Shown: positions 22,457-61,709 of the stretch, in pieces
How positions within the stretch are numbered: position 1 is the stretch's first letter
Layout of the letters: the number at the start of each line of letters is the position of its first letter
Source: Patescibacteria group bacterium
GTDB taxonomy: Bacteria > Patescibacteriota > Patescibacteriia > JACRDY01
Direction: 5' to 3'
DNA length: 64,000 nt
Assembly: GCA_041671565.1 (NCBI GenBank)
Contig: JBAZBH010000001.1
Location: 7,552-71,551 of the forward strand
Made by a program: the position numbers and the translations under genes
The notes under the pieces: model-generated
The model's input: the letters and a program-made list of their open reading frames with translations, nothing else
Database searches by the model: none
What the model was told of the DNA's origin: nothing

Positions 22457-22570
22457 TGTGAAGTTCAAAACCCTAAGTGCAAAGTTCAAATCAAGTTCAA
22501 AGATCAAAAGGTGCCAGAGTTTTGACATTTGAACTTGATTTGAACTTTGAATCTTTGAACTTTGAACTTA
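22457..22570. repeat. Copy B1 of the agttcaaa-type inverted-repeat element (about 50-bp arms built from agttcaa heptamers).
   Basis: gaagttcaaaaccctaagtgcaaagttcaaatcaagttcaaagatcaaa ... tttgaacttgatttgaactttgaatctttgaactttgaactt. A second copy lies at 30817. Confidence 0.8.
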
Positions 22571-24081: not shown

Positions 24082-24883
24082 ACTCAACCACCTTGAATGA
24101 CTTAATAATTTTTTCTTTGATTTCAGCGGCGGGCGAGTTTTGGATACTGCAGTCAAAACTCAAAAGGTAAAAACCGTTGTCTTCCAAGAGCAGGCCGTCA
24201 TTAGAGCATTCGGCGCCAATCGTCACTTGATAAGCTTTTTGCCCGCTGAGTTTGGCATCAGCGACTTTTTTAATGCCACCTAGACCCTGGTCGGCCAATA
24301 AATCCGCTAAATTTTTGTAGTTAGTCTCGCCGCTCTGCGACTTGAAAGCTTTGGCGAGGCTAGCGAGATCCGGCCAATAATCCACGGTTAAATATTTATA
24401 ATAACCGGGATTGGCCTCGCCCATCACCGCCAAATCGGCGTCAGCGTTAAACACTAAGAACTTGGCCAGTGTGCTGGAGGTTTTCTGCTCCTCGGCGGTG
24501 GCAGCCTCAAACAAAAAAGTCTCGGGGTAGCTAATCTCAAAGTGCTTGCCCTGAAAAGTTTTCCAATCGCCAATCTCGGCCGTGGCGCGGCGGAGCGGTT
24601 CAACTAGATTGGTATTAATACTACTCAACCGATTATTTAAACTTAAATTCGCGCCGGCCTCACACTCACTGACCTGATTTTTGGCCGCGGCCGCTTCGGC
24701 TTTAAGTTTAGTTACCTGGCCGCGATACAGCGAGCTGACAGCGACCACGGCAATAATGGCCAAAACGACAACGGCGACGAGAGCGAACTTTAGCCACAAG
24801 ACGGCGTGGCTTTTTTTGAAGAGGGACATAGGAGGAGGTATTAGATTATTATTTAAAATCACATAACACATAACATGGAACAA
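24080..24883 (-). CDS. Hypothetical membrane-anchored protein. It probably starts at MSLFKK near 24828.
   Basis: A single N-terminal TM helix (LKFALVAVVVLAIIAVVAV) followed by a soluble domain. No recognisable motifs. Confidence 0.4.
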   Translation of the reverse strand: MFHVMCYVILNNNLIPPPMSLFKKSHAVLWLKFALVAVVVLAIIAVVAVSSLYRGQVTKLKAEAAAAKNQVSECEAGANLSLNNRLSSINTNLVEPLRRATAEIGDWKTFQGKHFEISYPETFLFEAATAEEQKTSSTLAKFLVFNADADLAVMGEANPGYYKYLTVDYWPDLASLAKAFKSQSGETNYKNLADLLADQGLGGIKKVADAKLSGQKAYQVTIGAECSNDGLLLEDNGFYLLSFDCSIQNSPAAEIKEKIIKSFKVVE

Positions 24884-24926
24884 GGGTGGTTATAGGTCTC
24901 TTGTTATGTGTTCCATGTTATGTGAT
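24858..24926. repeat. Copy C1 of a ~70-bp imperfect palindromic element built from cacataa-type heptamers.
   Basis: atcacataacacataacatggaacaagggtggttataggtctcttgttatgtgttccatgttatgtgat. A near-identical copy lies at 39422. Confidence 0.8.
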
Positions 24927-24941
24927 TTACTTCCCTTGGTT

Positions 24942-25928: not shown

Positions 25929-26828
25929 TCAAACTAAAAACATTCGCTGGCAAAAAGCGCTAATTCCTATTCCATTTGTATTACAAGTCTGGACTCTATA
26001 TACCGGTACATTATTTATAAAAATAGTATAACCTACATTTATACCACTAGCCTTCTTAGCTATTATCACATCTTTTATTTTTGTCTGCTTGTCAATAGGT
26101 TTATAGATAGTAACACCCAAATCATTAACAATGATTACATATAAATCTTCGTCTTGACAATCTGTAATAAAATTTAAGAAATCATTTTTTTGCTTTGGTG
26201 TTAAATTATTAAAAGCATCAAAACAAGTAGTATTCAATAGAGATTGATATTTTTTACCATGCTCTCTGGCCCAAATCAAAAGTTTTTGATTATTCTTAGC
26301 CGTCCTCTTTAATTCACCCCTTTTATTAATATTCTTACCAGTAATTTTGAAAATGTGGTCATGTAGTTCTTTCCACATTTTATTTTGCTGTTTGATAAAA
26401 CTAAAACCGAAAAGTTTTTCTAATTTTCTTTGACCTAAATTTTTTAATGTTCCGGTTCCCGATTTAGCAATAGATTTTATGGAAAATCTTGTTTTCTTTT
26501 TGCTAATATGCTCCGCATCAACATCGGAAGTTGATTGCTCAATAACAAAATGACGGCCAGTCCAAACAACTCCGATGATCTTACCCTTTTTATCTATTTC
26601 GTTATCTAATATTTTTTTAATTTCTGGCTGAATTTTTATAAAATTATCATTTTGCAATTTTAATCTCTTCTTACCGTCTTCTCTTGCTAAAACTTGGTTA
26701 GATAATTTGGCTAAATTTTCACTATAAGAAAAAGTTATTTTATAAAGATGACAAATATACTGACAAACTAATAATTCAAAATAGTCCGCTTGAGCTCGAT
26801 TTGACTTTTCTTTATTACCCTTTTTCAT
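25929..26828 (-). CDS. Putative Type II restriction endonuclease. AT-rich, directly downstream of the N6-adenine methyltransferase.
   Basis: It lies 6 bp downstream of the methyltransferase on the same strand. Its composition is strongly AT-rich. No conserved REase fold is recognisable by eye. Confidence 0.45.
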   Translation of the reverse strand: MKKGNKEKSNRAQADYFELLVCQYICHLYKITFSYSENLAKLSNQVLAREDGKKRLKLQNDNFIKIQPEIKKILDNEIDKKGKIIGVVWTGRHFVIEQSTSDVDAEHISKKKTRFSIKSIAKSGTGTLKNLGQRKLEKLFGFSFIKQQNKMWKELHDHIFKITGKNINKRGELKRTAKNNQKLLIWAREHGKKYQSLLNTTCFDAFNNLTPKQKNDFLNFITDCQDEDLYVIIVNDLGVTIYKPIDKQTKIKDVIIAKKASGINVGYTIFINNVPVYRVQTCNTNGIGISAFCQRMFLV

Positions 26829-26834
26829 ATTTAA

Positions 26835-28289
26835 TTAGTTAAAATAAGCACTAACTATTTTATTAATTTCTTTTTGTTCGCGTTCAAAATTATAATTTAG
26901 ATCCTTTTTAATATTTTTAATAATATTTTCTGATATACTGGCTATGATTTTTATCTCTTGAACTTTAAAATTAGGCATGGGTAATTTTTTTATATCCCTA
27001 ATCTGAATTGAATTAGTGTGATTTAATAATTTAATTATTTTATTATAAATATTACTATTCAAAATACCAACAAAAAATTCTGGGGGGTATTTTAAAGGAT
27101 CTTTCGGAAAAAAACACATGGCCTTATTGCTTTCCCAAAGCGCTCCTCTTTCGGCTATCCTTGCCGACAAAGAAGAGCATATTCCTGAGATAATAAAACC
27201 GTCTTTATTACTTTCTAGATTTAAGTTTTTTGAGATTTTATAATTTTTTATAGATTGTTTATCCCACTTTATACAATATTCTACAGGAGAAAAATACTTT
27301 ATATCTCCACCCTTTTTATGATAAAACTTCCAATCACCGCTTGCCTTAATTACCTCTATCGGTATTTTCTGTAGACCACCGTTTCCAAACTGTCTCCCCC
27401 GATAATCTATAACACCTAAAAACGCTTTGTTATTTGTAGTATGCATCCCAAGCCCACCATTTAAAAAATCAACTAATTTTGGAAAAACTTTCATCTTATT
27501 AAGTATTGTGACATTGCCATTAAATCCAAAAATATAATCAGGGTTATTTAAAATTTCTCTTTGATTTATTCTTTTTTTAATCCCACTATAATCAGCTACT
27601 TGGTTGTTTCTACAATCGTTAAAAACAACAAAATGATTTTTGTCTGGCTTTTTATTTTTTAAATATATTATACAAGTATTTACCGACGCGCCGGTATCTT
27701 TAAATAAATTCTTAGGACAAATAGTTATTTCATTTATAGTATAGCTGGTCAGTAAAAATTTTCTTAAATTCTTATGAATTCCTAGGGTTAAGAAAGTATC
27801 GCTAATAATAAAACAAAGCTCGCCATAAATTTTTAAAAGTCGACAGCTTAAATAAAGAAACATGGCGTATGTATCATTAGCCCCTATTTCTTTATATATT
27901 TTTTTAAGCTCGCCCTTATTTTTTTTTATATAGCCACTTTGTTTATTAAGATAAGGAGGATTACCAATTATATGGCTAAACTCTTGTTTTTCGTTAAATA
28001 AACTATTACTCAAACTAGTTTCTAGCAGAGTATCTTTGATGACTATATTTTCTATTCCTAATTTAGTTATTATTTTATTTGTTTCGGGATTTATATCCCA
28101 AACGGTTATTTGTTGCGGCGATAATAATCTTTTTTCTAATATTTTAGAAACAAAAGCGCCATCACCTCCGCTGGGTTCAAGCAAATTACTTTTTGAAGTA
28201 AAACTTTTTACAAATTTATTAACCATATACTCAACGGTGTGTTGAGGTGTGTAAAAAGCTCCTAATTGTTTTTGTCTGTTTTTATCCAT
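26835..28289 (-). CDS. N6-adenine DNA methyltransferase (gamma-class, TaqI/Eco57I-like), with a C-terminal target-recognition domain.
   Basis: Motif X/I is LGAFYTPQ. Motif IV is IIGNPPYLN (NPPY). The composition is AT-rich. Confidence 0.8.
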   Translation of the reverse strand: MDKNRQKQLGAFYTPQHTVEYMVNKFVKSFTSKSNLLEPSGGDGAFVSKILEKRLLSPQQITVWDINPETNKIITKLGIENIVIKDTLLETSLSNSLFNEKQEFSHIIGNPPYLNKQSGYIKKNKGELKKIYKEIGANDTYAMFLYLSCRLLKIYGELCFIISDTFLTLGIHKNLRKFLLTSYTINEITICPKNLFKDTGASVNTCIIYLKNKKPDKNHFVVFNDCRNNQVADYSGIKKRINQREILNNPDYIFGFNGNVTILNKMKVFPKLVDFLNGGLGMHTTNNKAFLGVIDYRGRQFGNGGLQKIPIEVIKASGDWKFYHKKGGDIKYFSPVEYCIKWDKQSIKNYKISKNLNLESNKDGFIISGICSSLSARIAERGALWESNKAMCFFPKDPLKYPPEFFVGILNSNIYNKIIKLLNHTNSIQIRDIKKLPMPNFKVQEIKIIASISENIIKNIKKDLNYNFEREQKEINKIVSAYFN

Positions 28290-28295
28290 AATTAC

Positions 28296-28385
28296 ACTTA
28301 ATTTATCACGACTCCCTCTTGATCTTCTTCACCCCCCCATATACTTCCTCAAAACCTTCGGAATCTCCACCGAGCCGTCTTCGGC
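28296..28385 (-). pseudogene. Decayed duplicate of the serS 3' end. About 57 bp is roughly 90 percent identical to 29560-29616, with a 1-bp frameshift.
   Basis: cttcacccccccatatacttcctcaaaaccttcggaatctccaccgagccgtcttc here, versus cttcacccctcccatatatttcctcaaaaccttaggaatctcgaccgagccgtcttt in serS. Translation recovers ...DGSVEIPKVLRKYMGG and is then disrupted. Confidence 0.6.
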
Positions 28386-28530
28386 CCATCCCTACCATTT
28401 TCCCTAGAAGGTGAAAATGGTTATCCATATTTACAATGTGCATTTTTTGCACATTACTTTTATTGATATTCCAGTATGTGCAAAATTTGCACGGACTGAA
28501 CTAGTTCCAAAATGGAAACAATTGGGGCGT

Positions 28531-29421
28531 CTATTTTTTGTTATTAACACCAATTTTCCACACTCCTTTTTCACGAAAAGCCGGAATGGTTTGCCGTTTG
28601 GCTTTATTAAGAAGAGTAATAATGGATTCATCTTCTTTTTTGGCATATTCAGAAAGCCGAATAATTTTATCCCCTTTTAGATAGGCGATCCTTTTGTGAA
28701 AAGATTCTAAAAGCGCCAGGGATAAAACTTTATCCATGATAGCGGTTTTTTTCTTGTTGCTATTTTTGTATTCTCCAAAGGACTTATAATAAGCGGCCTT
28801 TTCTTTATCGCGAATAATAATCGGCGGAAACCCGGTTTGTAACAATAAGTAATTGATCAACACGCGGCCAATCCTGCCATTGCCATCACAAAACGGATGA
28901 ATATGTTCAAATTCAAGATGAAATTTGGAAATTTTTTCCAAAAAATATTCCGTGTGGCGACTTGAATATTCCAGAAGTAAGGCGTCGATCATCGCCTCGA
29001 GATGTTCCGGCGCCGGGGCAATATATGTTCCGACGCGGACATACTCATACTGCTGACGAAACCGGCCGGCGATTCCTTCGTCTATATTGGAAATCAACAT
29101 CTTATGCAGAAGCAAAATTAAATCCTTATCGATATTTTTTGTATTTATTTTATCTTTTACATACTCAAACACCCGCGCCAAATTTTTTGCTTCAAAAACT
29201 TCACGCACCGACACATTACGAGACACCTCCATATCCAAAAGAATCTTTTCTGTTTCAGAAATAGTGAGGGTCGAATTTTCAATCGCATTGGAGTTATAAA
29301 CCGACTCCGGAAGCTCGGCCTCAAATATAATATCCAAAAGAGGCTCCTTATTTTTCTTCAAGGAATCGTAATCCCGCCTCAAGGTATTAATTTTCTCCTT
29401 AATGTCTTTTGATATAGCCAT
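28531..29421 (-). CDS. Fic-family protein (AMPylator/toxin-like) with an intrinsic inhibitory motif.
   Basis: The Fic motif is HPFCDGNGRIGR. An N-terminal S-x-x-x-E-N inhibitory-helix motif is present (SNAIEN). AT-rich. Confidence 0.85.
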   Translation of the reverse strand: MAISKDIKEKINTLRRDYDSLKKNKEPLLDIIFEAELPESVYNSNAIENSTLTISETEKILLDMEVSRNVSVREVFEAKNLARVFEYVKDKINTKNIDKDLILLLHKMLISNIDEGIAGRFRQQYEYVRVGTYIAPAPEHLEAMIDALLLEYSSRHTEYFLEKISKFHLEFEHIHPFCDGNGRIGRVLINYLLLQTGFPPIIIRDKEKAAYYKSFGEYKNSNKKKTAIMDKVLSLALLESFHKRIAYLKGDKIIRLSEYAKKEDESIITLLNKAKRQTIPAFREKGVWKIGVNNKK

Positions 29422-29545
29422 AATAAAACCTTACTAAATTATACTATCATTATAGCAAATTCACGACAAAACATCAAGCTACCGTGAATTTGTAGCAAAA
29501 ATAGCATAAATTCACGCTAATATTGCAATAATTCCCTAAAAACCT

Positions 29546-30960: not shown

Positions 30961-31416
30961 CTATTTATGGACAAGTTTCGCTCCATTCAATTTGTCATTC
31001 CGCAACAACGAGCTCTTGTACTTCTCCGGCTGGAAGGGCTGGAGGCGGTGGACGGCGGCTTTAATCTTTAATTCTGCCAGCTTGCCGCGCAATTCGTCCA
31101 GGTCCATTTTCTGGTCGTAACCGAGGCAGACCACTTCGGGTTTTAATTCTTTAATAATTTTAAACCGGTTGGTCAGGTAGCCGAGAGCCGCGCGATTCAC
31201 CAGTGGGGATTTTTTCACGGCTTTGAGCCGGGCGTTTTCGTTAAACTGCGGACGCTGGCCTTTGTATTTTTTGACATTCAGATCGCGCGCCACCACCACG
31301 ATCAGATAATCGCCATAAACTTTCGCTTGGCGGAAAAAATCCAAGTGCCCGGGGTGTAGGCCGTCGAAAGTGCCGAAAACCATGACTTTAATCATAGTGT
31401 CTTTGTAGAAACGCAA
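30961..31416 (-). CDS. Cytidylyltransferase-like nucleotidyltransferase (HxGH type; RibL/FAD-synthase-like or glycerol-3-P cytidylyltransferase-like).
   Basis: The motif GTFDGLHPGH is present and the size is about 145 aa. The specific substrate cannot be assigned. Confidence 0.55.
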   Translation of the reverse strand: MRFYKDTMIKVMVFGTFDGLHPGHLDFFRQAKVYGDYLIVVVARDLNVKKYKGQRPQFNENARLKAVKKSPLVNRAALGYLTNRFKIIKELKPEVVCLGYDQKMDLDELRGKLAELKIKAAVHRLQPFQPEKYKSSLLRNDKLNGAKLVHK

Positions 31417-31424
31417 TGCTTTGC

Positions 31425-31472
31425 GTCTCCGTAATAAATCAAATAACGCGTTTAGAGACGCAAAGCATTGCG
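31425..31472. repeat. 22-bp-stem hairpin in the gap between lysK and the nucleotidyltransferase gene.
   Basis: aaacgcaatgctttgcgtctc ... gagacgcaaagcattgcgtctc. Confidence 0.6.
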
Positions 31473-31475
31473 TCT

Positions 31476-33035
31476 CTACCGATCGACTGCCTCATTAAGC
31501 CGTTTGACTACCAAATCACGGTCGAGGGACGCCAGGAGCCAACCGGCCTGGGGGCCGGAGTCTTTACCGAGAAATATACTGTAAATCGCGCTAAACAAGT
31601 CTTTTGGTTCAATCTGTAGATCCGCCTTGATCTGGTGGAGGGCGCTGTGCAGTTCTTCGCCGGAAAGCTTGGGCGAGGCAGAAAAAACTTTCAGGAGTTC
31701 GGCGAGCGCTTCTTTTTGTTTGGCGCTAAGGTCAACCGGCGGCAAGGTATCAAGAATATTAAATTTAAAACTGTCCGGCGCCGAAGTCGCGAGCCACTTG
31801 CGGGCGTAGTCTTCGCGCACCGCGATTTCCGCTTTTTCGTCCGCGGTCAGACCGTCCCCTTTCTCAGTCTCGGCGTAAGTGAGGACGCTGGCGCGGGGCA
31901 TTTGCAAGAGATAAGCGATTTTAGAAAAACGGAGGCGGTAGACCGGCGGTTTTTCCGGCAACAGCTGGGCGTACTCATAAGCCTGGCCGAGATCTGACTG
32001 CGGGTCTTTAAGGTATTCGTCAATACAGCGGTCCAGCTCGTCATAAAGCCGCGGCACGGCGTCGCCGTCCAGTTTGAACTCAATCCTGGTTTTGGCGCGC
32101 GTGCGCATCATCAAGAAACGAACCAACTGCGCCGGCAGAAGATCCACAATGTCAGCGGCTGAGACGCCCACACCCTTAGACGAACTCATCTTCTTGCCGC
32201 CATCAATCATGATCCATTCGTAAATATGGCTGTAAGGCACCGGGATTTTAAAAACTTGCTCGGCAATCGCCCGGGCGACGAAAAACGCGCCGCCTTTGGT
32301 GTAGTGGTCCAGCCCGGCGAGCTCCACGGCCGTGCCGCGGAATTGCCAACGCGCCACAATCGCTAGCTTGTACGGCAGTTTGGCATTGCCATCAAAGGGC
32401 GAAATCTGGCCTTGATAACCGCAGCCAACAGCCCAGTCAACCATCTTTGGCTCGCAAGTAAAACTGACCAGCTGGCCGTCCCAACCCGTGACTTTGGTCG
32501 TGCCCATCTTGCCGCACTTTGGGCAGATGACATTAAGCGGGTACCAGTCGTCGGCCTTGACCGAGCCGGAAACCGACTGATAAATCGCGCGGATCTCGGC
32601 GGCGTGGTCGAGAGCGATCCGGATCGACTCGTTGTATTCGCCGCCGCGGTAAGCGTCCGAGTCCAGAATAAACTTGGGCTCGCAGCCGAGTTGCTTGATA
32701 ACTTTTAGAAAATCCTGGGCGTAATAATCAGCGTAGCTTTTGTACCCCGGCTCCGGTGACGGAATGTTACATAAAGGCAAACCCATCAGCGGGCGGTATT
32801 TCTTTTCGTCAAGATAAACCGGCAGGCCATCCATCGGGTCAAAATCATCAAAACCATAGAGATATTCGGCCGTCTCGCCCGCCTGCCGCAGACCGCGGTA
32901 AATAGCGTCATGAATCAAGACACCACGGAGCGACCCGACATGGACTTTGCCCGAGGGGGTTTTGTAGTCAGTGACCAGATAACTTTTCTGCGGTTTTTTC
33001 CTGATTTCCTCAACAATTTGATTGACCCAAAACAT
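31476..33035 (-). CDS. lysK: Class I (archaeal-type) lysyl-tRNA synthetase
   Basis: The N-terminal HIGH-region equivalent is PSGKVHVGSLRG. A KMSKS-type loop is GKKMSSSKG. The length is about 520 aa. Confidence 0.8.
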   Translation of the reverse strand: MFWVNQIVEEIRKKPQKSYLVTDYKTPSGKVHVGSLRGVLIHDAIYRGLRQAGETAEYLYGFDDFDPMDGLPVYLDEKKYRPLMGLPLCNIPSPEPGYKSYADYYAQDFLKVIKQLGCEPKFILDSDAYRGGEYNESIRIALDHAAEIRAIYQSVSGSVKADDWYPLNVICPKCGKMGTTKVTGWDGQLVSFTCEPKMVDWAVGCGYQGQISPFDGNAKLPYKLAIVARWQFRGTAVELAGLDHYTKGGAFFVARAIAEQVFKIPVPYSHIYEWIMIDGGKKMSSSKGVGVSAADIVDLLPAQLVRFLMMRTRAKTRIEFKLDGDAVPRLYDELDRCIDEYLKDPQSDLGQAYEYAQLLPEKPPVYRLRFSKIAYLLQMPRASVLTYAETEKGDGLTADEKAEIAVREDYARKWLATSAPDSFKFNILDTLPPVDLSAKQKEALAELLKVFSASPKLSGEELHSALHQIKADLQIEPKDLFSAIYSIFLGKDSGPQAGWLLASLDRDLVVKRLNEAVDR

Positions 33036-39421: not shown

Positions 39422-39490
39422 ATCACATAACACATAACATGGAACAAGGGTAGTTATAGGTCTCTTGTTATGTGTTCCATGTTATGTGAT
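39422..39490. repeat. Copy C2 of the ~70-bp imperfect palindromic element.
   Basis: atcacataacacataacatggaacaagggtagttataggtctcttgttatgtgttccatgttatgtgat. It differs from C1 at one position. Confidence 0.8.
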
Positions 39491-39541: not shown

Positions 39542-40555
39542 CTATTTTGTCGCTAGAATACTCCGTTTGTAGCTCTCCAGGTTCTCGAGCGCGATTCCCG
39601 TCCCCTTGGCAACGCAGAGTAGCGGTTCGTCGGCGACATACGCCGCCACGCCGGTGGCGCGGGAGATGAGTTGGTCGATGTTGCGGAGTAAAGCCGAGCC
39701 GCCGCTGAGAATAATGCCTTTATCAATCACATCGGCCGCCAGCTCCGGCGGAGTTTTATGCAGGACATCTTTGACCGCCACAATAATCCCTTCCAGCTCG
39801 TTTTGAATGGCGTCGGTCACATCGTCCGAGGTGACGGTAATCGTCTTGGGCAGACCCGAGACCATATCGCGGCCGCGGATTTCCATTTGCATCCGCTCTT
39901 CCAGATATAGGGCCGAGCCGATTTCAATCTTAATATCTTCGGCCGTCCGTTCGCCGATCGCCAGGCCGTATTTTTTGCGGACATGGTTACTGATCGCGGC
40001 GTCAAACTTGTTGCCGCCGATGCGGACCGAAGTGGAAGCAACAATGCCGCCGAGCGAGATAATCGCCATCTCCGAGGTGCCGCCGCCAATATCAATAATC
40101 ATGTGGCCGGAAGCCGAACCGATCGGGATATTGGCGCCAATCGCCGCCACAATCGGCTCTTTGATAATATAAGCGGCGCGGGCGCCCGCGGCAATTGTCG
40201 CGTCAATGACCGCCCGTTTCTCGGTCGAAGTAATGCCGGCCGGCACCGCCACCATCACTTCCGGCCGAAAAAGGTGCACGCCGCCAAGGGCTTTATTAAT
40301 AAAATAACGAAGCATGGCTTCGGTGGTTTTGTAGTCGGCGATCACGCCGTCTTTAAGCGGCCGTCGGGCGATAATCGTATCCGGCGTCCGGCCGATCATT
40401 TCTTTCGCCTCTTTACCCACCGCCAGAATTTTCTTGTCTAAGCGCGAAGTCGCGACTACCGAGGGTTCATTGATAATAATCCCCCGTTTCGGCACATGCA
40501 CCAAAACATTGGTGGTGCCGAGATCAATCGCGATTTTCTTGATAAATTTGAACAT
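39542..40555 (-). CDS. mreB: Rod shape-determining protein MreB (paralog 1). It sits apart from mreCD.
   Basis: The actin-fold motifs are IDLGTTNVLVHV, DIGGGTSE and ILSGGSALL. Confidence 0.9.
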   Translation of the reverse strand: MFKFIKKIAIDLGTTNVLVHVPKRGIIINEPSVVATSRLDKKILAVGKEAKEMIGRTPDTIIARRPLKDGVIADYKTTEAMLRYFINKALGGVHLFRPEVMVAVPAGITSTEKRAVIDATIAAGARAAYIIKEPIVAAIGANIPIGSASGHMIIDIGGGTSEMAIISLGGIVASTSVRIGGNKFDAAISNHVRKKYGLAIGERTAEDIKIEIGSALYLEERMQMEIRGRDMVSGLPKTITVTSDDVTDAIQNELEGIIVAVKDVLHKTPPELAADVIDKGIILSGGSALLRNIDQLISRATGVAAYVADEPLLCVAKGTGIALENLESYKRSILATK

Positions 40556-43230: not shown

Positions 43231-43312
43231 GAATTAGTATTCAGGGAACAGTATTCGGGGAACAGGGAAAAACGACCCCTGAATACTGTATACTGCCCCC
43301 TGAATACTTACT
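43231..43312. repeat. Copy D1 of the gtattcaggg/cccctgaatac inverted-repeat element.
   Basis: agtattcagggaacagtattcggggaacagggaaaaacgacccctgaatactgtatactgccccctgaatact. Confidence 0.75.
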
Positions 43313-44360: not shown

Positions 44361-44379
44361 ATTAAAAAGTTATTCATTC

Positions 44380-44470
44380 CCTACGAATTACGAATTAGCG
44401 CGAATGTACGAATTACGAATCGCCGTGGTGGCTGGATTCGTACATTCGCGCTAATTCGTTATTCGTAGGG
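44380..44470. repeat. Copy A4 of the cgaat/attcg palindromic element (full copy, with a different spacer).
   Basis: ccctacgaattacgaattagcgcgaatgtacgaattacgaat ... attcgtacattcgcgctaattcgttattcgtaggg. Confidence 0.75.
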
Positions 44471-44471
44471 G

Positions 44472-46130
44472 CTAATATATTTCTTTTCTGTAGCACTCTT
44501 CGCAATAAACCTTTTCCGGCCGGTCCGGCGCGTAGGTGGTTTCAAATTCATTAGCGCAGCCGGGCCTCATGCATTGGCGATGATAAAGCCGGCGGGGATT
44601 ATTATGCCAGGATAACTGTTTAAGATGGCGGCAACCCGGACATAGGCGCGGCAAAGGCAACTTTTGCGCTCGATAAAATTTTAACTCTTGCGTGATAATT
44701 TTGTAATTGCGTTGGCAGGCATGGCAAGCCAAAATTTCATTGACGATTGAATCCGGCGCTTCCCCAATTTTATCCGGCAATTCTTTGATGATTTCTTTGC
44801 CTTTGGTAATAAAAATATCATCGCGCCAATTATAACCTTGCCTTAGTGCCTCGTCTTTAGTCAAAGGAAAAAAATTCTGCGCTTCGGTTTCATTATAGCC
44901 AAAAGGTGAAAATTGGGGCGGGAAAAACTCGCCGTATTCCCCATCTTGCTTCATCTGGGCGATAATCTGCTGTTTTAATTTCCGATATTCGCTTTCAGTA
45001 TATTGTTTATTTAAAATACAGAAACGCTGGCCCTTTAAGCCGGAACAGCCAAAACAATCTTTCACATTATGGCTATGCGACAGATATTGGCAATCATTGA
45101 CCGTATAAGTCATGTAAGAAAAATAGGTATTATAACCCTGGCCGATGCCTTGAATTTCATAGAGCAGTTCGCTGCCCACTGGCTGACCAAAACCATAAGA
45201 ATCACGGCAATCTTTCACACCCTCGCAGCCCCAGCAATTAACCAAATCTTCGCCGTCGATCACAAGAAAACAACTTTGGCAGTTTTTAGCGTTAAGCAAA
45301 TAATCGCCGGTAGAGTTAACAACTTTGTTAATTTCGGCGAATTTATGGATAATTTGGCTTTTAGTTTTTTCAAACTCTTTTTCTAAAACGGAAAACTGTT
45401 GAAAGCTGGAAAAATCAATCTCTTGAATCTTCTTTTGATACTCTGTTTCGGTTAGTTGCTGGCCGCGGAAAACATATTTCTGGTTGCGCAGGTTAAAACT
45501 CATAAAACAATCTTGGCAACCGTGGCAATTGTAACAAAACTTTAAATTGTAAGAGTTTTGGCAGTTAATGGCGTGCAGGCAATTAAAACATTGGAAACAC
45601 CAAAAACATTGGTAACAGAGTTCGCAGTTTTTATACATCATGTAGCTGTCCACAATATCTTTACTGTTAAACACCCAATGAGAATAAAAACAATCTTCGG
45701 CAAAAAAAATCACGCTGCAAGAATAGCAATTTTTATCATTGCCGGAATGGGCAGTATAATCGGAGTTGATGTTATTTTGGGATAAAAGCGCGGCTTTAGG
45801 CACAGCTAAAAATAATTCTTGCCATTGTTCGAAGAACGGCCGATTTTTGTCCCACTCGCGGCCATAAGCCTGCGAATCCCACTGGTCGCCCCACCAACAG
45901 TCGCGGCAATAAACCGGAAATTTGTTTTCCGGATGATAAACCGAGATTATTGGCTTTTGGCAAAAATCGCAATTTCGTTGATATAAAACTTGTGGATTTC
46001 TAAAAGCCAGTTTCCGTTGCATGCGGCAAGCCGGACACCACGACGGCTCGGGCACACTAATTTTATTATAAAACTGCCGATCGCTGTCGGTGATAATAAA
46101 CTCGGTTTGGCAACTTTTACAGATTGGCAT
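44472..46130 (-). CDS. Cysteine-rich multi-zinc-ribbon protein (paralog 1, 552 aa).
   Basis: About 10 percent Cys. The N-terminal ribbon is MPICKSCQ...CPACR. The central region has repeated C-x2-C-x2-C-x2-C modules. A C-terminal ribbon is present. Its C-terminus, YCEECYRKEIY, is identical to that of the neighbouring gene. Confidence 0.5.
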   Translation of the reverse strand: MPICKSCQTEFIITDSDRQFYNKISVPEPSWCPACRMQRKLAFRNPQVLYQRNCDFCQKPIISVYHPENKFPVYCRDCWWGDQWDSQAYGREWDKNRPFFEQWQELFLAVPKAALLSQNNINSDYTAHSGNDKNCYSCSVIFFAEDCFYSHWVFNSKDIVDSYMMYKNCELCYQCFWCFQCFNCLHAINCQNSYNLKFCYNCHGCQDCFMSFNLRNQKYVFRGQQLTETEYQKKIQEIDFSSFQQFSVLEKEFEKTKSQIIHKFAEINKVVNSTGDYLLNAKNCQSCFLVIDGEDLVNCWGCEGVKDCRDSYGFGQPVGSELLYEIQGIGQGYNTYFSYMTYTVNDCQYLSHSHNVKDCFGCSGLKGQRFCILNKQYTESEYRKLKQQIIAQMKQDGEYGEFFPPQFSPFGYNETEAQNFFPLTKDEALRQGYNWRDDIFITKGKEIIKELPDKIGEAPDSIVNEILACHACQRNYKIITQELKFYRAQKLPLPRLCPGCRHLKQLSWHNNPRRLYHRQCMRPGCANEFETTYAPDRPEKVYCEECYRKEIY

Positions 46131-46230
46131 AATTAAGTATTCAGGGAACAGTATTCAGTATTCAGGGAACTATATCCATGAACGGCGGATACGAACCCCT
46201 GAATACTGAATACCGTTCCCTGATCCCTTA
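46131..46230. repeat. Copy D2 of the gtattcaggg/cccctgaatac inverted-repeat element.
   Basis: agtattcagggaacagtattcagtattcagggaac ... gaacccctgaatactgaataccgttccctga. Confidence 0.75.
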
Positions 46231-47976
46231 GTATATCTCCTTACGGTAGCACTCCTCGCAATAAATCTTCCGATACCCCCACTCCGCCGGATAATATGAA
46301 GTAATTTTCTGCCCACAAAGCCCGCAAGCGGCCTCGCGGCCGAATAAGCCGGCCATCTGGCGGAAGTTTTCGGTCACGCGGTAATTATAATAATAGCGCG
46401 GCAAAGGAATGTTATTCGCTTGATAAAACTTGATTTCCTGCGGGATATAGCGAAAAATCTTGCCGGTTTTGCCGCATTTAATGGTTTTATTAACCACCGC
46501 TTCGGTTTTCGTCCCCTGAATACTGTCCGGCAATTCCTCGACCGTTAAATCAATTTTGGGCTCGGTGATAATCTCCTCCTGCCAACCGGCGCCGCGCGCC
46601 GCGACCTGCTCGCGGTTTTCCGGGAAATAAAGATAAGCGAGCGTGTCATTATAACCGTTATACATCATCGACACCGGCAGATACTCGCCATATTCGCCGC
46701 GCGCGGTCATTTTTTCTTTGATTAGTTTAACCAGCCGGCGATATTCGGCTTCGGGATATTGTTTATTCAGAATACAAAAACTCTTTTTGCGAAGACCAAC
46801 ACAACCGAAACAATCATGGCAATCTTCGCATTGATCCAGGTATTCGCTGTCGCGGCAACGGATAGCGTAAACACAAAATTTAAAATTATAGCAATCAAGC
46901 GACTGGGCAGAGCCGCAACTGAGCTGACCGCGGTAAGGTCCAACCGAGTCATAAATATCTTTATTGCCTAGCGCCCGCATCAGATTAAAGCAATCTTCGC
47001 CCTCTTCCATAAAAAAACAGTCGCGGCAATTTTTGCTCTCAGTCAGATAGTTACCCGAGCAGTTAACGGTTTTAACATTAAAGTTATCGCGGTGGATCGC
47101 CTCGGCAACTAAAACTTTTTTAAATTCAGCTTTTAAGTCCTGAATTGTGAACCAAGAGCCGAAATTGATTTCGGCGATTTTCCGCTCATACTCCGCCGCG
47201 CTGTATTGCTGATTTTTGATGCAGTATTCGGCGTTGCGGAGGTTCCAGCACATCAGACAATTCTTGCAGCCACGGCAATCATAGAGAAAATAACTATCCA
47301 GGCAGTCGCGGCTTTCCAGTGAATAATGGGTATTGTAACACTGCCAACAGCGAGTGCAGCTGTAGCATTTTTCCAGGTTATAAGAGTAGACCGAGTCAAA
47401 ACAATCTTTACAACCGACCATGCGATAACCAAAATACAAATCTTCACTTTCGGCAAAAGAACGGGTGAGATAACAATTCTTGCTGGTGTAAGCATCGTCG
47501 CAGTATTCACAATTAACATTAGTACCGTCAGTCAACTGATGATAATGCGGCGTCTTTTTTTGCAGGGCGGTTAATTGTTCGAGAAACGGCTGATCCAAAT
47601 TTACTTTCGCCTCCGGCACCTGCCAATTGTCTTTCAACCAATTTTCTCTTTTATAAACCGGGAACGGCGCCTGGGGTGAAAATGTCGAAATAATACTTTC
47701 GCCGGTCTGATCGCATTTTCTCTGGTAAAAATTGCCGAACGGCCAAAACGACGCCAAATGCTGGCGCCGGCAGTTGACGCAGAGCGTCGGCAGAGGCACG
47801 CCAATCCGGCCGTAGAACGCACGGTCCTCGGGGGAAATAGTAAACGCGGTTTGGCAGTTTTTACAAGCAGGCATAGGAATAATTAAAAGTGTAAAAATCA
47901 AAATGGAAAATGACAATTTAAAATTAAAAATGTCTAGTAAGCTAGTTAATTCATTAAACCGCCGAGAAGCTGGCAA
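46228..47976 (-). CDS. Cysteine-rich multi-zinc-ribbon protein (paralog 2). The likely real start is MPACKNCQ near 47868.
   Basis: It has the same architecture as 44472-46130: MPACKNCQ...CVNCR, repeated C-x2-C-x2-C-x2-C modules, and the C-terminus YCEECYRKEIY. Confidence 0.5.
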   Translation of the reverse strand: MPASRRFNELTSLLDIFNFKLSFSILIFTLLIIPMPACKNCQTAFTISPEDRAFYGRIGVPLPTLCVNCRRQHLASFWPFGNFYQRKCDQTGESIISTFSPQAPFPVYKRENWLKDNWQVPEAKVNLDQPFLEQLTALQKKTPHYHQLTDGTNVNCEYCDDAYTSKNCYLTRSFAESEDLYFGYRMVGCKDCFDSVYSYNLEKCYSCTRCWQCYNTHYSLESRDCLDSYFLYDCRGCKNCLMCWNLRNAEYCIKNQQYSAAEYERKIAEINFGSWFTIQDLKAEFKKVLVAEAIHRDNFNVKTVNCSGNYLTESKNCRDCFFMEEGEDCFNLMRALGNKDIYDSVGPYRGQLSCGSAQSLDCYNFKFCVYAIRCRDSEYLDQCEDCHDCFGCVGLRKKSFCILNKQYPEAEYRRLVKLIKEKMTARGEYGEYLPVSMMYNGYNDTLAYLYFPENREQVAARGAGWQEEIITEPKIDLTVEELPDSIQGTKTEAVVNKTIKCGKTGKIFRYIPQEIKFYQANNIPLPRYYYNYRVTENFRQMAGLFGREAACGLCGQKITSYYPAEWGYRKIYCEECYRKEIY

Positions 47977-48071
47977 TTTTACATTTTACACTGTCATTTT
48001 TATTTTTGATTTTTAAACTTTACATTTGCCAACAAATTTTCTTCATAAATTCATAAAACCCGTTACAGTTA

Positions 48072-48620
48072 TTAGCGCCTACCTTCAACTAAGTACACCG
48101 ACTTAAACCGCCGGCTAAATAGCCTCAGCGGAATAAACACCAAAGTTAAAATTAAGGCGAGGAAAAAAGCCTGCCAGCCAAGATTGGCGAAATAATCACC
48201 TGTTAATTCAATCATGAACGGCTGCCAACCCAGCCAAAAAGCCAAATTAAGGTAAATAAAATTAAAAAGTGAATATACTCCGAGGCCCAAAAGACTGAGT
48301 GAGAGCAAAGAATAAAGCGACCGATTGGTAAAAAATAACTTAAATAAAAAGTTAATCAGTAAAACGGCGCCCAGCAGCGGGAAAATAATGCCGCCGAAAA
48401 ATAACGGCGAATAGACTTCCAAAATCAAACCAGCGACCGCCGCTAGGTAAAGGCCCAACTGATAATTCACCAGCAAGACCACAAAAAAAATAAAAACTAA
48501 AATCAGATTAAGCTGGCTCCAGGGCCTCGCCAGCGCGCCGATAAAGCTTAACTGAAAAAAAATTAAAAATAAAAGCCAAACCAGAATACCGCCATTTTTA
48601 ATTATTTTAGCCGCGTCCAT
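48072..48620 (-). CDS. mreD: Rod shape-determining protein MreD (polytopic membrane protein).
   Basis: A 182-aa, entirely hydrophobic protein with multiple TM helices, directly downstream of mreC. Confidence 0.5.
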   Translation of the reverse strand: MDAAKIIKNGGILVWLLFLIFFQLSFIGALARPWSQLNLILVFIFFVVLLVNYQLGLYLAAVAGLILEVYSPLFFGGIIFPLLGAVLLINFLFKLFFTNRSLYSLLSLSLLGLGVYSLFNFIYLNLAFWLGWQPFMIELTGDYFANLGWQAFFLALILTLVFIPLRLFSRRFKSVYLVEGRR

Positions 48621-50016: not shown

Positions 50017-51066
50017 CTAGACATCATTAGTGGAGGGAATTAATAGATCTTTGAGATTATCCAAATCTTCCAAAATCAGGCCGGTGCCGCGCGCCACGCA
50101 AGTCAGCGGATCATCGGCGACGCGCACCGGGATCTGGGTGATTTTGGAAATCACTTTATCCAGATTTTTCAGGAGCGCTCCCCCGCCGGTTAAGACCATG
50201 CCGCGCTCATAAATATCGGCCACCAAATCCGGCGGCGTAATTTCTAAGGTCGCTTTGATATTCTCAATGATGGTTTTAACTGACTTCGCCAGCGCCTCGC
50301 GGATTTGACCGTCGGTCACCATAATTTCTTTCGGCAAGCCGGAAATCAAATCGCGGCCGCGCATTTCCAACTCCAGCGGGTCTTTGAGCGGCCCGGCCGA
50401 GCCGATTTTCTTTTTGATTTCTTCAGCCACCGGCTCGCCCAAAAGCAGGTTAAAATTTTCCCGGGCGTACTGGACGATATTACGGTTCATCTCGTCGCCG
50501 GCAATGGTAATCACTTTAGCAGTAACAATGCCACCAAGAGAAATCACGGCAATCTCGCTGGTGCCGCCGCCGATATCAACGACTAAATTACCCACCGCCT
50601 CCTGCACCGGCATCCGCGCGCCAATCGCCGCCGCCATGGCTTCTTCCACCAAGAAAACCTCGCGCGCGCCGGCGGACAGCACCGCGTCTTCGGCTGCTTT
50701 CCGTTCCACTTCCGTCACTTCCAGCGGCACGCCGACAACGACCCGCGGCCGCGGAAAAAATGAAAAGCCCTCACCGTGCACTTTATTAATAAAATATTTC
50801 AACATTTTCTCCGCCACTTCAAAGTCGGAAATCACGCCGTTAACGAGCGGCCGCGTCACCAATAAATGTGGCGGCGCTTTGCCGATCATCCGCTGGGCTT
50901 CCGCGCCAACCGCGATAATCTGGTCGGTGCGGGTATTGACCGCCACCACCGACGGCTCGTTAATCACGATCCCCTTACCCATAACATAAACCAAGGTATT
51001 GGCCGTACCGAGGTCAATACCCAAATCTTTGGAAAAATAGCCGAGTAAGCGATCAACTAAAAACAT
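50017..51066 (-). CDS. mreB: Rod shape-determining protein MreB (paralog 2), in operon with mreCD.
   Basis: The actin-fold motifs are IDLGTANTLVYV, DIGGGTSE and VLTGGGALL. Confidence 0.9.
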   Translation of the reverse strand: MFLVDRLLGYFSKDLGIDLGTANTLVYVMGKGIVINEPSVVAVNTRTDQIIAVGAEAQRMIGKAPPHLLVTRPLVNGVISDFEVAEKMLKYFINKVHGEGFSFFPRPRVVVGVPLEVTEVERKAAEDAVLSAGAREVFLVEEAMAAAIGARMPVQEAVGNLVVDIGGGTSEIAVISLGGIVTAKVITIAGDEMNRNIVQYARENFNLLLGEPVAEEIKKKIGSAGPLKDPLELEMRGRDLISGLPKEIMVTDGQIREALAKSVKTIIENIKATLEITPPDLVADIYERGMVLTGGGALLKNLDKVISKITQIPVRVADDPLTCVARGTGLILEDLDNLKDLLIPSTNDV

Positions 51067-51583: not shown

Positions 51584-51820
51584 AAGGAGTGTTTAAGGTG
51601 GTTATATCTTAACAAAAATTGGGGTCTAAAACAAGGGTGCGAATTTATAAATAATTTCCAATTTTTAATTTAAAATTTCTAACCAATTTATAATTTTTAA
51701 TTTTAAATTACCACGAACTCGGTTGGAGGCTTAAAATTAAGAATTAAACCTTAAAAATTATTAAATAATAAATCTCAAATTCTCCGCCAACTCCTGCCCG
51801 CCGAAGAGGACGCGCTACAA

Positions 51821-61598: not shown

Positions 61599-61709
61599 AT
61601 GGTTGATAGCGACTTGTGGTTAGCAGTTAGCGATTTGGGCCTAATTAATTAAATTAATAAGTTTGCTAACTGCTAGCAGCTAATAGCTATCAGGTAATTC
61701 CATTATACC

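Follow-up and report, generated by a model that had tools for sequence, protein, structure and literature searches.

What kind of protein is encoded by two adjacent Cys-rich genes that lie among glycosyltransferase and cell-shape genes of a Patescibacteria genome? The question is raised by a window of 64,000 nucleotides from a Patescibacteria group bacterium (GenBank assembly GCA_041671565.1, contig JBAZBH010000001.1, positions 7,552 to 71,551 of the forward strand), in which an initial annotation, made from the sequence without database searches, had described a tandem pair of multi-zinc-ribbon proteins of unassigned function. The pair consists of gene A (44472..46130, minus strand, 552 amino acids (aa), identified by its open reading frame (ORF) and by its homologs) and gene B (46228..47874, minus strand, 548 aa from its ATG). 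The family of ~550-aa proteins to which both belong is termed FAM here. A and B are read as an A-type and a B-type member of a Patescibacteria-specific family that might serve as a scaffold or adaptor linked to an ATPase and to the Hsp70 system—a reading whose chance of being right as a whole falls just short of even.

A and B are real, intact genes. They are minus-strand paralogs as initially described: an end-to-end BLASTP alignment gives 36% identity (E 8e-114), the N-terminus MP[IA]CK[SN]CQT is common to both, and the last 11 residues, YCEECYRKEIY, are identical. The size of ~560 aa and the Cys content of ~10% given in that description come down to 552 and 548 aa and to 39/552 (7.1%) in A and 38/548 (6.9%) in B; the family mean is 6.6%. 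The reiterated C-x2-C modules are borne out, with 19 CxxC pairs in A and 16 in B versus 2.7 ± 1.5 across 5000 shuffles (~7 times chance), and the longest CxxC chain, of 6, is found in A. The second ORF is listed from a TTG at 47976 (46228-47976), which would add 34 residues and overlap an AT-rich palindrome. The start of B is placed at the ATG at 47874, because all homologs begin at the MPxCKxC motif there. The public gene calls are imperfect: A is recorded only as a 343-aa fragment (JGI; 100% identity, 62% coverage) and B as a product of 557 aa that begins farther upstream; the true starts follow from the N-terminus of the family.

Regular expressions run on A and B find neither the ferredoxin pattern CxxCxxCxxxCP nor the radical-SAM pattern CxxxCxxC—as initially stated and with no Pfam match to either family—and no Walker A, DnaJ CxxCxGxG, or heme-c style motif. 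No catalytic motif or enzyme-family match is found by Pfam, NCBIfam, or motif searches, and neither protein has a hydrophobic N-terminus, signal peptide, or transmembrane segment (maximum Kyte–Doolittle hydropathy over 19 residues 0.81 in A and 0.54 in B), again in agreement with the first description. Judged by their sequences, both would be cytoplasmic proteins.

Each protein is framed by double zinc modules; the coordinates of all domains given below are on the minus strand. The N-terminal module of A (residues 1–90, 45861..46130) is recognized by Pfam matches and by Cys columns that are 82 to 100% conserved, with conservation taken from alignments of 50 and 120 family members. It features the C4 sets Zn1 (C4, C7, C32, and C35; zf_Tbcl; 100% conserved in 50 sequences) and Zn2 (C54, C57, C75, and C78; zf_Tbcl_2-like; 82–98%). 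The C-terminal module (residues 466–552, 44475..44735) features Zn3 (C469, C472, C497, and C500; 86–100%) and Zn4 (C520, C525, C543, and C546; 98–100%). In an hhalign comparison, Zn1+Zn2 align with Zn3+Zn4 at a probability of 99.7% (E 1.8e-26); by this profile comparison, they are duplicates of one double module. Conserved Cys residues are limited to these four terminal sets, save a few central exceptions (C202, C205, C208, and C362).

In B, the N-terminal module (residues 1–90, 47605..47874) has an intact Zn1 (C4, C7, C32, and C35) and a degenerate Zn2, of which only C54 is kept and T57, K75, and N78 occupy the other alignment columns. The C-terminal module (residues 464–548, 46231..46485), compared by alignment and with the B-type consensus, has a degenerate Zn3, with C467 as the only ligand left, and an intact Zn4 (C517, C520, C539, and C542). 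The B-type consensus likewise carries no Zn2 and Zn3 ligands. Sequence comparison indicates that the loss in B is not decay, because the B-type is a separate, old subfamily sharing it. Of the zinc ribbons first proposed for both ends of the two proteins, the predicted zinc-binding modules at both termini stand, with the restriction that B has only two of the four C4 sites. Since the central Cys residues are not conserved ligands, A is predicted to bind ~4 Zn and B 2 Zn.

Known finger families reach only the edge of these modules. The zf_Tbcl (PF13451) and zf_Tbcl_2 (PF23477) families are described as probable treble-clef fingers; Zn1 of A matches the former, and Zn2 resembles the latter. PF13451 aligns to residues 3–40 of A with 26.7 bits (E 5.6e-6) and passes its gathering cut-off of 24 bits; PF23477 aligns to residues 50–79 with 15 bits (E 0.02), below its 27-bit cut-off. 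B has no match to PF13451 at E ≤ 1, though its four Cys residues align, and none to PF23477. Among 45 family members, 11 match PF13451 and two match PF23477 (E ≤ 0.01). Both Pfam entries cover ~40 of the 550 FAM residues and carry no function, and in FAM the pair of fingers is a fixed tandem arrangement present at both termini. For Zn4, searching PDB sequences with a profile points to the C-terminal half of a LIM domain (1ctl, E 8e-4), as this last module (W/Y-H-R-x-C ... C ... VYCxxCY) can be aligned with that half of CRP1 (1CTL/1B8T). FAM is not classed as a LIM protein, as one of two fingers is matched and PF00412 is found in neither A nor B and in 1/45 members (E 0.008). A tblastn search of phage genomes gives a single 77-residue match, to the N-terminal module.

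Basic double modules flank an acidic core, and the overall isoelectric point (pI) is ~6.5. The net charge of the N-terminal and C-terminal modules is +2 and +8 in A, and +3 and +6 as family means. Such charges would suit a nucleic-acid binder, in which the modules grip DNA or RNA, the core is a rigid spacer, and the neighboring TrwB/FtsK-like ATPase is a partner DNA translocase for uptake, segregation, or repair. This idea gains from the TrwB all-alpha DNA-binding domain of the ATPase and from small phage "zinc-ribbon domain" proteins that superpose on the FAM module; the name "Zn ribbon nucleic-acid-binding protein" that one JGI gene call gives to a homolog is automatic and not evidence. It sits poorly with the overall pI and the acidic core, and no known DNA- or RNA-binding zinc-finger family is matched. 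Moreover, LIM, the finger that Zn4 resembles, is a protein-binding one, and half of the fingers are lost in the B-type subfamily. Nucleic-acid binding is regarded as unlikely.

Between the zinc modules lies the Cys-rich core, for which a duplicated β-solenoid is predicted. Half 1 of A (residues ~118–238, 45417..45779) would comprise ~7 coils of 12 residues and a closing helix, NLRN..Y..Q.S.EEY; half 2 (residues ~268–389, 44964..45329) is its internal duplicate according to hhalign (probability 99.9%, E 3e-31, 120 columns), and the duplicated repeat regions each include the closing helix. In B, two such halves with a helical hairpin between them are assigned to residues ~117–385 (46720..47526) from the phase of the Cys residues and an AlphaFold2 (AF2) model. 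The central Cys residues follow a strict 3-residue period—all B Cys from 122 to 218 are in one phase modulo 3—and a (D/N)-C-(Y/F) motif marks a 12-residue register with ~7 coils per half. The AF2 models have a mean predicted local distance difference test (pLDDT) score of 86.9 and a predicted template modeling (pTM) score of 0.89 for A, and of 84.9 and 0.86 for B, whose layout is as in A. The sequence periodicity is support for the solenoid that is independent of AF2.

The central Cys residues are variable. Their column frequencies are 0.2 to 0.8, with replacement by Ser, Leu, Val, or Ala, and individual proteins carry 7 to 20 of them in the first half and 3 to 14 in the second. Cys pairs at i+3, i+6, i+9, and i+12 do not co-occur above expectation, and fewer than half of the members (47%) have an even central total. 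Outside the repeats, helices and loops contain 0.3 Cys on average; Cys makes up ~10% of the solenoids versus ~0.2% of those regions. Obligate disulfide pairs and per-coil C4 sites were rejected, since the Cys residues do not co-occur. By these statistics, the central Cys would be interchangeable residues of tight 12-residue coils rather than conserved metal ligands; because they are period-3, variable, substituted by small or aliphatic residues, and not co-occurring, they probably line the solenoid core, analogous to the Tenebrio antifreeze protein.

The insect antifreeze protein (AFP) β-solenoids are the closest comparison for this core. With TmAFP (1EZG), spruce budworm AFP (1M8N), and the Lolium ice recrystallization inhibition protein (3ULT), FAM shares the 12-residue coil repeat with a small or Cys residue at every third position, presumably pointing inward as in TmAFP. 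In contrast to these proteins, FAM has no TCT ladder (1–2 stray TxT) and no signal peptide, its Cys residues are neither conserved nor paired into one disulfide per coil, and two solenoid halves are placed inside a 550-aa, zinc-capped cytoplasmic protein. Faint precomputed Pfam AFP (PF02420) matches exist on some FAM paralogs; a formal match is found neither for A and B (E ≤ 1) nor for 45 members (E ≤ 0.01). A phage family of unknown function, phrog_15341, matches A 133–209 (E 6e-11) and B 270–365 (E 4.5e-10). By sequence, the Cys-rich solenoid repeat is also present in phage proteins, and the match is uninformative as a clue to FAM, as it covers the solenoid repeat only.

The density of Cys also invites a metal or redox role, with Cys ladders that bind extra Zn, Cu, or Fe or build Fe-S clusters, either as a metallothionein-like buffer or as a SufBD-like β-helix scaffold served by the ATPase and Hsp70. 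In SUF and ISC systems, a scaffold is served by an ATPase (SufC) and by Hsp70 (HscA/HscB), and the Hsp70 and ATPase neighborhood of FAM would be analogous to these. The enrichment of Cys in the solenoids, a conserved CxxCxxCxxC at 199–208 (column frequencies 0.62–1.0), and the ArsR-like and CutA1 genes near FAM in six related loci each would all suit such a role. Yet most central Cys positions are variable, with Leu, Val, or Ser instead, and do not covary with one another; ferredoxin and radical-SAM motifs are missing, and no sequence match to an Fe-S, metallothionein, or Suf family is found. SufB/SufD-type β-helix proteins further differ in that FAM has no conserved cluster-binding Cys. A metal or redox function is accordingly rated improbable.

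A family-specific loop/helix domain follows half 2 in A (residues 397–465, 44736..44942; GEYGEFFP..SPFGYNET..W.D). It is acidic (net charge −6), ranks among the most conserved stretches of the protein (mean column entropy 1.61 bits, pLDDT above 90), and has no match in any library searched. Column entropy is 2.0 to 2.3 bits on the solenoid and hairpin surfaces versus 1.35 to 1.6 in the caps and the loop domain. Together with a conserved Tyr/acid ladder (Y125, Y136, E145, Y149, D161, and Y173), the acidic domain is, from these alignment data, the best candidate for a functional surface. The proposed layout of FAM would hence run from a basic double treble-clef zinc module through solenoid half 1, a helical hairpin, half 2, and the acidic loop domain to a second basic double zinc module. 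Full-length homology and this order of zinc modules, solenoids, and loop domain are found in both A and B. As a structural description, combining sequence statistics, profile comparison, and structure prediction, this can be held with high confidence.

The family is large and essentially confined to Patescibacteria. Of the candidate sequences scored, at least 6,298 are homologs of ~550 aa with E ≤ 1e-3. Clustered at 50% identity, the family has 6,237 representatives, of which 2,434 reach E ≤ 1e-30 and the best 150 are all full length (523–602 aa). Genomic matches number at least 577, of which the best 80 are from metagenome-assembled genomes (MAGs) of Patescibacteria. A is 41 to 57% and B 29 to 65% identical to hundreds of full-length proteins; the B-type subfamily has 1,236 matches, and B orthologs are 60 to 65% identical, including Falkowbacteria HY933_01370. 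Source lineages are the Kerfeld-, Falkow-, Uhr-, Nomura-, Lipton-, Wolfe-, Giovannoni-, Gracili-, and Peregrinibacteria and others. A "Burkholderiales" contig (L049, JAMPXW010000002.1) and an "Oligoflexia" protein (P0343) carry typical arrays of FAM, ATPase, and DnaJ and are probably mis-binned Patescibacteria DNA.

The homologs are annotated as "hypothetical" or "zinc-ribbon domain containing." NCBIfam has no match to A or B, and PADLOC, which covers known anti-phage defence proteins, assigns them 0 families. PDB sequence searches with single sequences and profiles return only the half-LIM similarity, Foldseek against PDB has a best E of 1.8, and against BFVD it finds only small zinc-ribbon phage proteins at E ≥ 0.04. 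For the core of FAM, there is no entry in Pfam, NCBIfam, or PDB. In the literature searched on zf_Tbcl/PF13451/PF23477, on Cys-rich proteins and antifreeze proteins of the candidate phyla radiation (CPR), and on Parcubacteria β-solenoids, nothing describes FAM, and a look-up of the paralog P0017 returned no record. Membership among ferredoxins, radical-SAM enzymes, DnaJ Cys-rich regions, and defence proteins was rejected on motif, Pfam, and PADLOC results. The initial view that no characterized family is matched is upheld, with zf_Tbcl on A 3–40 as the only Pfam assignment and nothing for the core; it was to fall with a match to a characterized family or with ORFs that are not conserved, and what is seen is no core match and strong conservation.

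What such a protein might do is suggested by its neighbors in related genomes. The sample consists of 79 related loci of up to ~22 kb each (numbered with the prefix L). Tandem arrays of 2 to 11 FAM copies occur in 54/79 loci: single copies are present in 25 loci, two in 15, three in 10, four in 18, five in six, and six in two, and 7, 10, and 11 copies are found in one locus each. One MAG carries 11 copies in 22 kb. In an unbiased clustering of all 1,149 neighboring ORFs, the top neighbor is a soluble VirD4/TrwB/HerA-type ATPase (25/79 loci, 34 copies), followed by DnaK (14 loci), rpsD and rpoA (13 each), GrpE and a PaaX_M-type regulator (12 each), and DnaJ (5). The long form of the ATPase features TrwB_AAD_bind, T4SS-DNA_transf, DUF87, and TraG-D_C domains, a zf_Tbcl_2 finger (PF23477, 43 bits), and a K/E/P-rich tail. 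When the zinc and solenoid modules of FAM were turned into hidden Markov models (HMMs) and compared with all neighboring ORFs, the only match, a marginal one, was to this ATPase finger (E 3e-4).

In Paceibacteria, the gene order is rpsM...rpsI, grpE, one to four FAM copies, a paaX-like gene on the reverse strand, and dnaK; thereafter follow the long ATPase, one to four FAM copies, a short ATPase paralog, dnaJ, and FAM. Apart from the paaX-like gene, the block lies on one strand with gaps mostly <100 bp. It is seen in L012, L015, L016, L018, L023, L024, L026, L029, L038, L049, L055, L060 (1-13666), L080, and L081, and the grpE-proximal FAM copy is B-type in four loci. FAM and the ATPase are also adjacent without the dnaK block and in the Falkowbacteria locus L011. 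Many third-party annotation MAGs labeled "Saccharibacteria" share the Paceibacteria block. The PaaX_M protein (170 aa, with a Cas2-like domain), possibly a lineage-specific regulator of the chaperone operon, is in every case encoded immediately upstream of dnaK on the other strand (L012 13575-14087, minus strand, and 11 other loci). Other lineages have other neighbors: rplJL-FAM-FAM-mraZ is the order in Wolfebacteria, AHSA1 and ABC transporter genes are present on a Gracilibacteria contig, and TrmB-like regulators stand beside FAM in Kerfeld- and Gracilibacteria (L086 9071-9820, L088 9150-9908). Genes for ArsR-like (ArsR/MarR-like winged helix-turn-helix, wHTH) proteins and for CutA1 are neighbors in six loci each (clusters c15, c16, and c22; L007-L085). 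Such recurrent wHTH and CutA1 genes hint at dedicated, possibly metal-related regulation.

Because its genes are interleaved with those of the ATPase and the chaperones on the same strand in many Paceibacteria, FAM would be tied to both. It would be a non-enzymatic, rigid binding scaffold or adaptor whose paralogs diversify the solenoid surface and keep the zinc caps and the loop domain. Its partners would be the orphan soluble VirD4/TrwB/HerA-type hexameric ATPase, which carries the same zf_Tbcl_2 finger, and the Hsp70 system GrpE-DnaK-DnaJ. This functional link of FAM, ATPase, and Hsp70 is offered as a possibility, and a somewhat doubtful one. The ATPase most often found beside FAM has the domain set of the orphan VirD4-like type IV coupling proteins (T4CPs) of Patescibacteria. 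In CPR genomes, 5,713 VirD4-like T4CPs have been reported, only 148 of them near virB4, and a possible exaptation has been raised (bioRxiv 10.1101/2025.01.22.634366). The same report does not mention a Cys-rich family or a placement in dnaK operons; the word "zinc" is absent from it, and "cysteine" appears a single time, in an unrelated passage.

The same adjacency to T4CP-like ATPases could mark FAM as exported cargo, that is, a substrate of the VirD4-type coupling ATPase kept export-competent by DnaK, with the paralogs as diversifying effectors or surface proteins for an epibiotic lifestyle and solenoid Cys that form disulfides after export, as in insect antifreeze proteins. Tandem, fast-diverging paralogs would be expected of such cargo, and FAM is only 47% identical between this window and its close relative L013, where the neighboring genes are 61 to 90% identical. 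But FAM carries no signal peptide or transmembrane segment, the ATPase is without the N-terminal membrane anchor of true VirD4, and most CPR T4CPs lie away from virB4. Even Cys counts in only 47% of members and no i/i+6 co-occurrence speak against disulfides, four zinc sites of intracellular type are odd for a secreted protein, and FAM resides among core housekeeping genes (ribosomal, dnaK, and dcw operons). Export is thus a long shot.

Several points weigh against the scaffold or adaptor reading and the solenoid model under it. The evidence for the functional part is gene neighborhood throughout. The 79 loci are phylogenetically related (many are Paceibacteria with one synteny block), so that the counts are not independent, and they were picked by the A-type C-terminal motif. 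No VirD4-like ATPase, grpE, or dnaK gene is present in the 64-kb window, and ATPase and dnaK are likewise not nearby in Kerfeldbacteria L086, Wolfebacteria L087, and Gracilibacteria L005 and L088. In the AF2 models, the solenoid pLDDT is only 66 to 79, and AF2 can over-predict β-solenoids for repeat sequences (PMC11795689); the inward orientation of the Cys residues and the geometry of the zinc sites are presumed. C202, C205, and C208, within the CxxCxxCxxC, and C362 are 78 to 100% conserved and could form further metal sites, and packing alone does not account for the strong enrichment of Cys over Ala and Ser at period-3 positions.

The surroundings of A and B in the window are of a different kind. 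Downstream lie two GT2 glycosyltransferase genes (PF00535; GT2a and GT2b), a DUF4012 gene, and then a second MreB; upstream lie a 182-aa membrane ORF, an MreC gene (PF04085), an Imp-YgjV-like gene, and an MreB. The two MreB paralogs (39542-40555 and 50017-51066) are 47% identical and flank the stretch of mreC, putative mreD, FAM, GT2, and DUF4012 genes. The genes had initially been placed between GT2s and mreD: the GT2 and MreC neighbors are confirmed, and mreD has no HMM support, as the 182-aa ORF (48072-48620) in this position has no Pfam match and is a putative mreD by position only. Membership in a glycosyltransferase/mre cluster does not extend to the family, with GT2 neighbors in 1/79 related loci and MreC/MreD homologs in 0/79. 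GT2a, GT2b, and DUF4012 recur only in L013, which has a single FAM copy related to A and keeps the order FAM-GT2a-GT2b-DUF4012-MreB. The GT2/mre setting is lineage-specific and not a family property.

A role in the envelope or cell shape, as a bactofilin-like cytoskeletal β-helix polymer or a glycosyltransferase partner, would draw on this setting between GT2 genes and mreCD, on its retention in L013, and on FAM copies that immediately precede mraZ and the dcw cluster in a Wolfebacteria locus. It is countered by the rarity of GT2, DUF4012, and MreC/MreD neighbors, by contexts that vary widely between lineages, and by the lack of a Pfam bactofilin match. FAM was rejected as a bactofilin, which is defined by an HMM match (PF04519), 18-residue triangular coils, and polymerization. 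Bactofilin, left-handed hexapeptide β-helices, and SufB/SufD all have wider coils (≥18 residues) than FAM and no sequence relationship to it. An envelope function is very improbable. Under the scaffold or adaptor reading, the pair in this window would instead be satellite copies that were moved beside GT2 and mre genes by a lineage-specific rearrangement.

Every intergenic gap around A and B holds a long hairpin. The one between B and A (46134..46230, minus strand) consists of AGTATTCAGGG(AAC) repeats, ends 3 nt before the A ATG, and has a folding free energy (ΔG) of −59.8 kcal/mol (z −10.8). A different palindrome between A and GT2a (44379..44470, minus strand) has 35-nt arms that are 97% complementary (ΔG −60.2 kcal/mol, z −12.2). 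Upstream of B, an AT-rich palindrome (47881..48026, minus strand) has 51-nt arms that are 80% complementary (ΔG −37.5 kcal/mol, z −5.9), and a AGTATTCAGGG-type hairpin lies between GT2b and GT2a (43236-43308). The AGTATTCAGGG motif occurs 9 times versus 0.7 expected. Further hairpins are located at 22480-22549, 24856-24928, 29436-29512, 31405-31479, 39422-39490, 51687-51764, and 61604-61692. Across the window, at least 10 long intergenic hairpins with near-perfect arms of 23 to 35 bp lie between codirectional genes, and sequence is shared within the pairs 24856/39422 and 43236/46134. The window hairpins lack a canonical U-tract and match nothing in Rfam; perhaps they are genome-wide elements of mRNA processing, stability, or termination. 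Repeats thus do flank both genes, as initially reported, but as specific brackets of the pair they were rejected, since similar hairpins fill many intergenic gaps of the window.

Elsewhere in the window, a low-GC island (25929-29421; 28% GC at 26 to 28 kb versus ~47% overall) contains an unannotated 299-aa ORF (25929-26828), an Eco57I/N6_Mtase-type methylase (26835-28289), and a Fic/DOC protein (28531-29421). It is probably a restriction-modification or toxin module gained by horizontal transfer. Neither tRNA genes nor Rfam families (at the gathering threshold) were found in the window (1-64000).

For the family, the label of a multi-zinc-ribbon protein is replaced by a concrete predicted fold, a duplicated antifreeze-like β-solenoid with treble-clef caps, and FAM merits its own annotation model. 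Treble-clef fingers and an AFP-like solenoid are each known folds; their combination, the scale in reduced genomes, and the operon link are new as far as the libraries and literature searched show. The genomes of Patescibacteria are tiny, and yet some spend 10 to 11 tandem genes (~20 kb) on FAM. The recurrent operon link to Hsp70 and to the orphan VirD4-like ATPases of CPR supplies defined candidate partners. FAM, these VirD4/TrwB-like ATPases, and GrpE-DnaK-DnaJ might form a Patescibacteria-specific protein- or nucleoprotein-handling machine with the zinc-capped solenoids as exchangeable adaptors or cargo, which is rather unlikely on the present evidence. If true, a function would be found for thousands of "exapted" T4CP homologs and for a gene family that ranks among the largest unannotated ones of CPR and occupies up to ~20 kb of a <1 Mb genome.

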